The notes under the pieces are model-generated. The model saw only the letters and a list, made by a program, of their open reading frames with translations, did no database searches and was not told where the DNA came from. From Octopus vulgaris (taxonomy: Eukaryota), in NCBI GenBank assembly GCA_951406725.2, contig OX597816.1, forward strand, positions 93,558,001-93,622,000: 64,000 nt of DNA. The letters run 5' to 3'. Each line of letters starts with the position of its first letter. Positions within the stretch are counted from its first letter, which is position 1. Both the position numbers and the translations under genes were made by a program. Positions 3,703-63,650 of the stretch are shown here, one piece after another.

Positions 3703-3769
3703 ACAGTCTCAAGTGTAACAGGCCGAAACTGTAGTGATAACTGGAATCATGACTGATGAATAGAAAGCC
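3703..3769 (+). ncRNA. Non-circularly permuted hammerhead ribozyme motif (degenerate copy) in a Penelope-like terminal-repeat fragment (about 3700-3870)
   Basis: acagt-C (3703-3708) pairs with A-ctgt of GAAActgt (3725-3732). tca (3709-3711) pairs with tga before CTGATGA (3753-3759). ggc/gcc forms stem II after a short insert. Confidence 0.55.
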
Positions 3770-4091
3770 AAGAATGTTCCATCCTGGTTTTCCTGTCCAT
3801 CCTTGTATCGTCCATCTGTCCGTATGTTTTCATTGTCGTCCGTTACATTCTTGTTCCATTTTATTATTTATATATATACATATAACGGCGTACGTACACC
3901 TTTTGCTCAGTTATATATATAACTGTTGCAATGGGTCCATAACTAGCGTCTCAGCAATAACCTTGGAGCCCTAGTAATCCGTTACAGAACTTACCTAGCG
4001 TACCTAATCGTTTAGATCACTTGTGAACTAAACCCACATAGTTTGTGTGTGTGTATATATATATATATATATATATATATATATATATATA

Positions 4092-4315
4092 TATATATAT
4101 ATATATATATAGTTAATCCAAACATGAAAACGCAAAGTGAAAACACAACAACGCGAGGACATGGAACAAGTATAGTGTTATTGGACGCTCAGGAAAGAAA
4201 AGAAAGGAGGATTTAATGTTTTGAGCGGAGCTCTTCGTCAGAAACATAGGAAAAGGAAAGATCCAAGGAAGAGAAGACGGAGAGAGAAAATCGCCAACCA
4301 TACACACGCGGTCAT
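4092..4315 (-). mobile_element. Short Penelope-like/retrozyme-type element bounded by (TA)n, with a decayed minimal type I hammerhead (4211-4245)
   Basis: The minus strand reads gttt-CTGACGA-a-gagc-tcc-gctc-aAAA-ca-tt-aaat, where GAAACG has become AAAACA by two CpG transitions. It shares a downstream 'cctgagcg' motif with the elements at 36030 and 62530. Confidence 0.7.
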
Positions 4316-4394
4316 ATATATATATATAAACTTACTTGGAAGTGAATGCATGGTGTTCAATTAAATAATAATATTAATAATATATATGTGTGTG

Positions 4395-4775
4395 TGCATT
4401 CTTGTCTGTCTCTTGTCCAAGCTTTCTTCTTCGCGTTCGCCACCTCACCTCGCTTAGGCTTAACAACCCTTCCTGTTTGTTTTAACTGTCCTGTTTTTGT
4501 TACAAATTTTGGCCCTCCGCAAAATCCCAAATTTTATTTAATTTGCTTTGCGGAAGCAACTGTTTTATTGAAGGCGTATCTTGTTGAATTGCTCGAAATA
4601 CGGATTAGAAAAACATCCGACAACTGATGAAGGGTCGGTCATTATGTTACTTGTCTTCTCTTCCATTTGTTTCTTTCGTTGTTGCAAAAAAAGTTCATAT
4701 TCCATGTATTGGTATTTCGTATCTCATGTTTTCGTTTTTTTATGTTTACGTTCCGTGGCGTCCTGTTCCCACATA
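4395..4775 (+). mobile_element. Penelope-like terminal-repeat element (same family as 8098-8400 and 4951-5198)
   Basis: Shares 'ctgtcctgtttttg...ccgcaaaatcccaaattttatttaatttgctttgcgg' with the reverse complement of 8270-8340. It is flanked by microsatellites and carries a permuted HHR. Confidence 0.7.
4575..4635 (+). ncRNA. Non-circularly permuted (pseudoknotted) hammerhead ribozyme motif
   Basis: cgtat-C | ttgttg | aatt | gctc-GAAA-tacg | 15 nt | cgacaa-CTGATGA-a-gggt. Stem III is cgtat/atacg, stem I is ttgttg/cgacaa, stem II is gggt/gctc. The core is complete and the predicted cleavage triplet is AUC. Confidence 0.75.
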
Positions 4776-4950
4776 TGCACATGTATATACGTATAGATGT
4801 AAGTATGTACATATACATATGTAAATATACATACATACATACATACATACATACATACATACATACATACATACATACATACATACATACATAGACACAC
4901 ACACATACATTTATATATATATATATATATACATATATATATATATATAT

Positions 4951-5198
4951 ATGGGTACAGGGCGTCACCAACAGTAAACAACATGAAATACGAAAACAAG
5001 TGAGTTAAATGCGCAAATAACGAGAGAAAATGGAAAACAAGAGAAGTAATATAAAGAATGACCCTTTATCAGCTGTCGGCTACCCATTACGAGTAGTATT
5101 ACTTGTCTTGTTTTCCATTTTTCTCTCGTTAATTGCGTATGTAACTGATTTGTTTTCGTATTTCATGTTGTTCACAGTTGGTGACAACCTGTACCCAT
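4951..5198. repeat. About 100-bp imperfect inverted repeat (fold-back Penelope-like terminal repeat)
   Basis: 4951-5051 'atgggtacagggcgtcaccaacag...gaagtaata' is the reverse complement of 5097-5198. The spacer holds a mutated HHR core strand on the minus strand (ccgacagctgataaagggtc). Confidence 0.85.
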
Positions 5199-61909: not shown

Positions 61910-62290
61910 TCTTTTACTTGTTTCAGTCATTAGACTGCAGCCATGCTGAGGTACTGCCTTGAAGAATTTGTAGTCGAATGAATCGACCAGTGTACTTTTT
62001 GTTTTTTTTCTTTCAGGCTAAGTACTTATTCTATAGTGTGCATTTTATTTTGCCAAACCGGTAAATAACAAGGATGTAAACACACCAACAAGTTGTCACT
62101 CCGCAGACACAAATGCGCGCGCACATACACACACATGCGTGCATATATATACTACGGGTTTCTTTCAGTTTCTAACTGCAAAATCCACCCACAAGACTTT
62201 AGTCGACTCGACGCAATAATAGATGAGATTTGTCTAAAGTGCTATGCAATAGGATTGAAACAAACTTCTTACCACACAGCTACGCCTATT
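61910..62290 (-). mobile_element. SINE family B
   Basis: 'tttacttgtttcagtcattagactgcagccatgctg...tttctttcagtttc...caaaatccac...cttaccacacagctacgcct'. Confidence 0.8.
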
Positions 62291-62529
62291 TGTGCACGTG
62301 TGTGTGTGTGTTTGTGTGTATGTGTGTGTGTATGTGTGTGCGTGTGCGCATGTATATCAATGCTTTTAATACTAATATGAATTTTAGCACACAGCCACAA
62401 ATTTGTATGGGAGGGGGTATTCCTATCGTTTTGTGCGGATCACCTCAATTTCCGTGTCGTTTCCCCTATATATATATATATATATATATATATATATATA
62501 TATATATATATATATATATATGCATATAT

Positions 62530-62698
62530 AGGGAGAGTTTATGAAAAAAACAAAAGACGAAGACAGGTGGTGTACAAAACAAACAGATGTATTAGTATAA
62601 CGCTCAGGAACAGAAAAAGCCGTTTACGTTTCGAGCCTACGCTCTTCTACAGAAAGGGACACAGAAAAAACAAGGAGAGAAAAAAATGTGTAGTGGCT
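62530..62698 (-). mobile_element. Short Penelope-like/retrozyme-type element with a variant minimal type I HHR (62622-62655)
   Basis: The minus strand reads ttt-CTGTAGA-a-gagc-gtag-gctc-GAAA-cg-TA-aac. Homologous to 36030-36190. Confidence 0.72.
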
Positions 62699-63340
62699 GG
62701 GGGGACATAAATAATTATCCGCACTTTTACCATTACATATCTTTATTTTGTCACACTGCCTTCTGCGCATGCATGCTTACAGTTGGTACTATTGTGGTCA
62801 CGTAATCGAGGTTTGAGCCTGATCACGCCAATTATCTTTCTGGCTTGACAGTGTAAACATGGTTGCTCCTCTAGCAATGTGCACCAAAGAACAAAAAATA
62901 GTTATCCGAGAGATGGTAATGATGAAGCGGTTCACCATTACCATCTCTCGAGCTTGCTGAATCTTCTCATCACTGGTGGAGGTTAACAGGCGTTCTGCTC
63001 CCTCTTCGTGCGTCACGCTTGTCCGGCCACTTTTAAACTTCCCGACCCACTTCTACGCGGTAGTGCACTGTCCCTATATTGTGCCAAAAGCTGCCAATGA
63101 ATTTCAGCACCGGACACACCTTTCGACTGGAGAAATCGAATCACTGTCTTTGTTCTTCTTTGGTGCACGTTGCTAGTGGAGCGGCCACGCTTACACTGTA
63201 AAGCCAGAAAGAAAAATGGCGCGATCAGGTTCAAACTTCGATCACGTGACCACAATGGTACCAACGCATGTGTAGAAGGTAGTGTGACCATAATAAAGAT
63301 ATATTCTGGCAAAAGTGCGGATAATTTTTTACTTCCCCTC
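62699..63340. mobile_element. Mariner-derived fold-back element made of two 5' ends (about 210-bp inverted arms)
   Basis: 62699-62910 is the reverse complement of about 63135-63340 ('aattatccgcactttt.cca...gtcacact.ccttct...tgcaccaaagaa'). The minus strand encodes a transposase N-terminus, 'TVIRFLQSKGVSGAEIH...SGRTSVTHEEG'. Confidence 0.82.
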
Positions 63341-63344
63341 TGTC

Positions 63345-63650
63345 CTGCTATTACTATTCTCGTTTTTTATTTTTGTTTTTTGTATTTATATTCGTGTGGC
63401 ATCGTCCGTTTTTCTGTCCTTGTTTCGTATACATTCGATCCTTTTTCGAAGAAATCTAATGCTCGTAGCTTAGTTTCTCCTTGGGGCTGGCCGGATCGGA
63501 GCGATCTCAGGATTAATCAGCCGAAATTGCGAAGATGATCCGGTTCCTGACTGAAGATTAGAGGCTTCGAATGACCCGTCCGTTTTTTGTGTCGTCTCTT
63601 TATGTGTTTTGCGTTCTTGTCCCATTTTGTATTTTTTATATATAATTTTT
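63345..63650 (+). mobile_element. Penelope-like terminal-repeat element
   Basis: Homologous to 59478-59740 in reverse orientation. Ends at a TA/CA microsatellite and carries a permuted HHR. Confidence 0.75.
63501..63566 (+). ncRNA. Non-circularly permuted (pseudoknotted) hammerhead ribozyme motif with intact core
   Basis: gcgat-C | tcagga | ttaatc | agcc-GAAA-ttgc | 14 nt | tcctga-CTGAAGA-ttaga-ggct. Stem III is gcgat/attgc, stem I is tcagga/tcctga, stem II is ggct/agcc, and the triplet is AUC. Confidence 0.8.

Follow-up and report, generated by a model that had tools for sequence, protein, structure and literature searches.

A predicted hammerhead ribozyme with a split core near the 3' ends of Naiads and non-coding Penelope-type repeats of Octopus vulgaris

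A 64,000-nt stretch of Octopus vulgaris DNA from contig OX597816.1 (hereafter the window) contains five sites at which the core of the hammerhead ribozyme appears in the order cleavage site, GAAA, CUGANGA (S, G, C), and the locus raises the question of how a core arranged in this way would fold and whether its RNA cuts itself. The order is not one of the circular block orders around a three-way junction that characterize types I, II, and III in Rfam. The motif is probably a hammerhead core, predicted to be self-cleaving, in which one strand of stem II lies upstream; it occurs close to the 3' end both of Naiad retroelements and of non-coding Penelope-type repeats, which are abundant.

All five sites were present in the window sequence. 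A strict descriptor with cleavage site, GAAA, and CUGANGA, stem III and stem I of at least 4 bp each, and a permissive downstream stem II matched three of them, 4580(+), 8243(-), and 63506(+), whereas 0.005 matches per window were expected by chance, or 0.085 without the stem II requirement (200 block-wise dinucleotide shuffles). At site 3708, stem I has only 3 bp, and the copy at 59548(-), with C17 at 59608, carries GAGA instead of GAAA and a stem III interrupted at the fourth pair. The first-pass annotation had described five hammerheads in what it called C-B-A order; all of its sites exist, but only two copies (63506 and 8243) are intact, and the other three are damaged. Its further claims agreed with what we found with respect to the order, the covariation of stems I and III, the positions of the predicted cleavage sites, the altered GAAA at 59548, and the description of the cores as non-circular, pseudoknotted, borne on Penelope-type repeats, and overlooked by standard searches (an Rfam gathering scan of the window gave 0 matches). 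Where it had proposed at least two families, there are three: A (4580 and 8243), B (59608 and 63506), and C (3708), the units of families B and C being 66% identical over 211 nt.

The core nucleotides CUGANGA, GAAA, and UH were all present in 144 distinct cores, with H17 being C in 97, A in 40, and U in 7 (the descriptor excludes G), and CUGANGA, GAAA, U16.1, and C11.1 (135/144) were conserved while all of the stems diverged. The annotation had placed the second strand of stem II directly after CUGANGA, and this placement failed. At least four Watson-Crick pairs with the pre-GAAA strand were offered by a strand lying 20 to 27 nt upstream of U16.1 in 94 of the 144 cores and by the strand after CUGANGA in none; in 50 of the 144, most of them family-B cores with the run at +5, some pairing run began no more than 20 nt downstream. 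In another count, 51/66 cores paired upstream and 0/66 next to A9, and among 24 cores with intact stems I and III, drawn from 75 pattern matches (the first 30 matches and 40 regions picked from rows 31 to 100 for diversity), the figures were 22/24 and 0/24. When partners were swapped among 12 cluster medoids selected without regard to pairing, the upstream run averaged 4.17 pairs in native and 2.07 in swapped combinations (p=5e-5), and the downstream strand gave 1.83 and 1.82 pairs (p=0.55). The pre-GAAA strand of the Naiad_Obim consensus (PMC8557442) also pairs with the upstream strand, and G10.1-C11.1 and A15.1-U16.1 were found in 15/15 hand-picked intact examples.

Furthermore, 12 copies of families B, C, D, and F were aligned (13 picks made for diversity, reduced to 10 by dropping three that were 5'-truncated, plus two added). 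In this alignment, 90% of the cells of a four-helix structure paired, none of 500 shuffles did as well, slid controls reached at most 49%, and 16 of the 23 pairs changed on both sides; a downstream stem II gave 56% pairing, equaled in 185/500 shuffles. Stems I, II (with the upstream strand), and III and a further helix, P4, are thus shown by covariation. With one stem II strand located upstream of the cleavage site, A9 and G10.1 are separated in the chain.

These results bear on the simplest alternative, that the cores are ordinary type SGC hammerheads (PMC10085705) with an intact CUGANGA block and stem II within 1 to 2 nt after it. A-type copies can form four such pairs, two of them G-U, after a 1-nt insert, and family B can form four after 5 nt; a downstream stem II with an insert of 1 to 6 nt was accordingly considered and rejected. 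No core of the 144 reaches four Watson-Crick pairs beside A9, the downstream strand shows no partner specificity, such a stem is absent from families C, D, and E and from the Naiads, and the purines after CUGANGA are accounted for by another helix (P5b). This alternative is hardly credible.

The layout with an upstream stem II strand is illustrated by the intact family-B copy, in which P5 and P6 were derived from family copy L012:

63432..63573 (+): intact family-B ribozyme domain, from sequence, with the cut predicted
63432-63444 (+): P5a
63447-63484 (+): P6 hairpin, with one mismatch at the hairpin base
63485-63490 (+): stem II 10.x strand, G10.1 being 63485
63491-63497/63537-63543 (+): P4
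63499-63500 and 63534-63535 (+): GA of the kink-turn
63501-63505/63526-63530 (+): stem III
3' of C63506 (+): predicted cut
63507-63512/63545-63550 (+): stem I
63517-63522 (+): stem II 11.x strand
63523-63526 (+): GAAA
63551-63557 (+): CUGAAGA
63558-63573 (+): P5b
63368..63655 (+): the 5'-truncated family-B Penelope-type repeat copy with a microsatellite at its end, 96% identical to an 837-nt unit in L019

P4 is formed by the strand that follows stem II and the one that precedes stem I'; in the 12-copy alignment, it was 74% paired, and 5 of its 7 pairs showed double changes. A kink-turn consensus consists of a 3-nt bulge followed by tandem G-A/A-G pairs, and the loop between P4 and stem III fits it in 64/75 B/C/D-type, 9/10 Naiad-type, 1/39 A-type, and 5/20 other cores. 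In most families, then, P4 appears to be joined to stem III by a kink-turn sequence, the kink itself being predicted. P4 is separated from stems I and II by linkers of 0 to 2 nt. P5b, the strand after CUGANGA, pairs 5' of the P6 hairpin, which ends at G10.1. An energy test of P5, run after a count-based test and on 12 of 14 medoids (L221 and L053 excluded), gave -8.8 kcal/mol for native and -6.2 kcal/mol for swapped partners (p=5.5e-4; control segment, p=0.91), and P5 and P6 are visible by eye in the published Naiads of Acropora, Morbakka, Pomphorhynchus, and Eulimnadia. The P5/P6 junction bridges the break between A9 and G10.1, though it is less strongly supported than are stems I, II, III, and P4. 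The domain is about 140 nt long, not 60 to 70 nt as annotated, so that constructs of the shorter length would be without stem II.

The kink-turn counts also bear on a second alternative, in which the base pairs are the same but monomers are inactive, the active form requiring either two copies (in tandem transcripts, for instance, one unit's flanks would dock on another unit's loop) or a protein such as the element's reverse transcriptase (RT) or an L7Ae-type kink-turn binder. In A-type cores (e.g., window 4565-4612), a GAA/AGUA internal loop occurs in 16/39; we take it to resemble the loop E (sarcin-ricin) motif. Its presence in place of the kink-turn would suit such a form, as would the nearly continuous 15 bp of P4 and stem III in Naiad_EuTe, the frequency of tandem units, and the many copies that apparently derive from uncut RNA; Penelope hammerheads have been proposed to act as dimers (PMC4209133), and one is protein assisted (PMC11167929). 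A monomer that folds back on itself is favored instead by the fixed register of the kink-turn consensus in 64/75 and 9/10 cores and by the 0- to 2-nt linkers, together with stems I and II of about half a turn. We regard the dimer or protein form as unlikely. The A-type families lack the kink-turn and Naiad_EuTe has only a 1-nt bulge, so that a monomer fold is doubtful in these.

In the 2.8-Gb genome (227 contigs), the pattern CGAAA-N18-28-CUGAWGA had 33,084 matches, compared with 3,993 for a reversed-pattern control, and the matches lay mostly in non-coding Penelope-type units of 700 to 840 nt. Evenly sampled DNA (600 kb) contained 4 intact cores, and a first look at the three window families gave 4,355, 3,030, and 1,284 candidates, figures that should not be read as copy numbers. 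The units are 66 to 69% C+T, are without long open reading frames (ORFs), and measure 713 to 843 nt in tandems; their 3' ends are fixed in (TA)n, their 5' ends are variably truncated, and they form partial tandems and inverted 5' copies and insert into microsatellites. By their 3' ends, truncation, tandems, inverted copies, and microsatellite targets, they are Penelope-type non-autonomous elements; of these features, the fixed (TA)n ends, the 5' truncation, and the inverted copies are given as Penelope hallmarks in Craig et al. 2021 (PMC8557442). The type I hammerhead in each unit that marks non-LTR retrozymes was not found in them. Contigs of four sequencing runs, which are not on record as RNA, cover the unit but are unable to show ends or circles. 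At L097, L102, and other places, there is a young Penelope-like family with many intact 781-amino-acid frames of RT and C-terminal GIY-YIG, whose 3' region contains no hammerhead by either descriptor. This family was rejected as the carrier: the 30 best GIY-YIG matches had no such core within 1.5 kb, and the family's 3' region resembled the units only through neighboring insertions and simple repeats.

If the RNA is cut, truncated copies may begin at the cut. In a census of family B whose sole selection criterion was an anchor 60 nt 3' of H17 (the first 100 of 718 matches; 97 mapped and 4 unaligned), 38/97 5' ends fell at -2 to +20 relative to the predicted cut, none fell at -3 to -28, 6 fell at +21 to +59, and the rest lay upstream (Fisher, 1e-9); four of the ends, at -2, cannot be told apart from (AT)n. 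Family A, which is older and noisier, had 12/71 ends at +1 to +24 and 2 at -1 to -27 (p=0.02; the first ~70 of 522 matches). In other families, copies start at +1 directly after a microsatellite in L275, L278, L282, and L299. Several partial or inverted family-B copies in L019, L018, and L028 start 40 to 45 nt 3' of the predicted cut, at the CUGAAGA block, and such starts are a minor class in the unbiased census. An edge this sharp is, we infer, what would be expected if cut RNA were reverse transcribed, and the truncated copies that start at the predicted cut are likely to record cutting in the cell.

A third alternative would read the same edge differently: a hammerhead-derived fold that does not cut could serve as an RT-binding or promoter element, and the pile of 5' ends could reflect transcription start, RT stalling, or microhomology. 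Penelope terminal repeats contain start sites (PMC8557442), and the ends peak 3' of the site rather than at it, 17 of the 38 lying in an AT-rich patch. We consider this account quite unlikely, given the retention of CUGANGA, GAAA, U16.1, and C11.1 despite the divergence of all stems, the match of the edge to the cut position in families with unrelated local sequence, and the 21/38 ends outside the patch; stalling, moreover, should favor the 3' side of the hairpin (+21 to +44), where only 5 ends lie.

The motif extends to Naiads, which Craig et al. 2021 reported as lacking a canonical hammerhead, their supplement bearing unexplained “HHR_core” and “HHR_half_core” labels. In the supplement passages covered, which hold some of its 54 sequences, the split-core layout was recognized by eye at the ends of eight named consensus sequences, Naiad_Amil, Aacu, Anas, 2_Movir, Plae, EuTe, Obim, and Ovul, which span Cnidaria, Acanthocephala, Arthropoda, and Mollusca, as well as in one passage without a name in part 9, while part 8 shows a variant of it. 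The octopus Naiad core had 305 exact matches in the genome against 0 for the control, and genome repeats are near-identical to the published octopus Naiad ends. RT motifs upstream of Naiad-type cores were seen in 2/20 further loci (L466 and L477) and in none of 12+20 loci; in L466, an RT fragment lies about 900 nt upstream of the core (RVT_1, E=2e-4). The units resemble Naiads in their 3' untranslated region position, (TA)n preference, 5' truncation, partial tandems, and inverted 5'-truncated copies. Families A, B, and C are non-coding and share the architecture with Naiads without detectable sequence similarity; a full Naiad ORF, with N-terminal GIY-YIG and C-terminal RT in one element, was not found for these families. 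In supplement S5 (parts 13 to 16), nematode Naiads have CUGANGA before GAAA and a long interrupted stem II, a circular order, and on this sequence evidence they carry a second, circular-order form of the hammerhead.

Taken together, the observations lead us to lean towards the reading that the motif is an active hammerhead in which a break separates A9 from G10.1 and the P5/P6 junction and the kink-turn reunite the catalytic core, outside the six published permutations; that the Naiad clade, in at least four animal phyla, has in it the ribozyme it seemed to lack; and that the 5' ends of thousands of insertions are a fossil record of cleavage in vivo. The probable wiring is 5'-P5a-P6 hairpin-stem II(10.x)-P4-stem III-UH-stem I-short linker-stem II(11.x)-GAAA-stem III'-P4'-stem I'-CUGANGA-P5b-3'. 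P4 and stem III would form one long hairpin onto whose loop both flanks fold back as stems II and I, creating two short pseudoknots of 4 to 7 bp; the kink-turn would supply the bend in families B, C, and D and the octopus Naiad, and P5 and P6 would hold A9 beside G10.1 although the two are distant in the chain. A fraction of element transcripts would be cut 3' of H17; reverse transcription of cut RNAs would yield short copies starting at or just 3' of the cut, and uncut RNAs would yield longer copies and tandems. Two cuts in a tandem read-through transcript could release unit-length RNA, as for animal retrozymes.

Several points weigh against this reading, in addition to the A-type families and Naiad_EuTe. 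CUGANGA and its two neighboring stems were assumed to be uninterruptible in PMC10085705, which the A9/G10.1 break contradicts, and the literature searched, in which subscription journals were mostly uncovered, held no tested precedent for such a break. In PMC11167929, a Penelope hammerhead showed no activity unless protein was present, and in vitro insertion did not require the ribozyme. Nested folding of six regions, by a minimum free energy method that cannot represent pseudoknots, gave z-scores that were not significant in five and recovered the hairpin of P4 and stem III in only 2/6. The families share ancestry, so that permutation p-values are optimistic and related copies inflate covariation statistics, and the energy test of P5 was preceded by the count-based P5/P6 test, in which 48/94 copies gave p=0.068. 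The 5' ends peak at +8 to +16 and not at +1, the AT-rich patch (+5 to +11) holding 17 of the 38 family-B ends offers microhomology to (TA)n, and about 55% of family-B copies extend past the cut site. Finally, the RT match in L466 is below the Pfam cut-off (21.5 versus 29.6 bits), and no sequence similarity of the A, B, or C units to any ORF was found.

The other window copies differ in preservation, the family consensus having G at the G10.1 position where the 4511..4636 copy has A:

8180..8320 (-): intact A-type domain; P5a/P6 8320-8270; repeat copy 8102-8340
8180..8320 (-), stem II: 8269-8265 with 8233-8229
8180..8320 (-), core: predicted cut after C8243; GAAA 8228-8225; CUGAUGA 8198-8192; P5b from 8191
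4511..4636 (+): A-type domain, likely impaired, G10.1 to A at 4554; repeat copy 4396-4840
4511..4636 (+), core: C17 4580; GAAA 4595-4598; CUGAUGA 4624-4630; P5 4511-4516/4631-4636
59557..59629 (-): decayed family-B core, likely inactive; C17 59608; A14 replaced by G (59589), a mismatch in stem III, part of P6 deleted; repeat copy 59455-59953
3701..3860 (+): family-C copy, likely inactive, 5'-truncated 7 nt upstream of predicted cut C3708; stem III, GAAA 3725-3728, and CUGAUGA 3753-3759 retained; stem II strand, P4 5' strand, P6, and P5a all lost

Conventional hammerheads were also present. Window 7606-7679(-) contains a type I hammerhead with a 7-bp stem I, a long stem II, and a palindromic minimal stem III, without an Rfam match, and at window ~4205-4250(-) a different repeat carries a minimal type I hammerhead in which AAAA stands in place of GAAA, with intact copies in L004 and L043. 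The array in L121 (C1:20000001-20010000), with tandem units of ~359 nt and a canonical type I hammerhead per unit (7 matches, both strands), is a classic non-LTR retrozyme. A Pfam search of 8 window ORFs gave no match for 4; the matches included a broken mariner transposase (11723-12542), a LINE RT fragment (25905-28176), and a Pif1 helicase fragment (37806-38357). An abundant dispersed and tandem repeat family with 120- to 230-nt units occurs at window 13146, 20790-21905, 31362-31760, 34753, 46557-46934, and 51382-52053.

The plain S-G-C order, whose novelty the annotation had left to be checked, is already published: Eckert et al. 2023 (PMC10085705) named it type SGC and validated it, with 583 examples, all metatranscriptomic and none in genomes of known organisms. 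Those RNAs (HRIMA-1 and variants) have in common with the octopus cores the order, three mutually crossing stems, and a short linker between stems I and II, and their extra helix “I,” which ties stems I and II, likely corresponds by position to P4. In type SGC, stem II follows CUGANGA, whereas here its strand is upstream, P4 continues stem III, and P5/P6 is added; the sources of type SGC are metatranscriptomes, and here a retroelement in a genome carries the motif. Animal non-LTR retrozymes (PMC7229834; bioRxiv 10.64898/2026.07.22.740005) are, like the units, non-coding, with one hammerhead per unit, tandems, and a Penelope-like link, but they have type I hammerheads, mostly 150- to 450-nt units, and circular RNA shown for some, whereas the octopus units are 700 to 840 nt and mostly truncated monomers. 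The minimal type I hammerheads of Penelope-like elements (PMC4209133) share the terminal-repeat location and tolerate one unpaired nucleotide separating the core from stem II; they are circular (C-G-S) with a vestigial stem III, in contrast to the long stem III and non-circular order here. The split-core motif is new within the hammerhead class and is not type SGC as defined; neither this wiring nor a Naiad hammerhead was described in the literature searched, within the coverage given above.

If the reading is correct, the rule stated in the literature, by which CUGANGA is inseparable from stem II, would fall, and non-circular hammerheads would go from metatranscriptome oddities to tens of thousands of copies in animal genomes. 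The reading would also explain why Naiads apparently lack the ribozyme that other Penelope-like elements carry, and the 5'-end edge would offer a direct handle on whether and when Penelope hammerheads cut in vivo.

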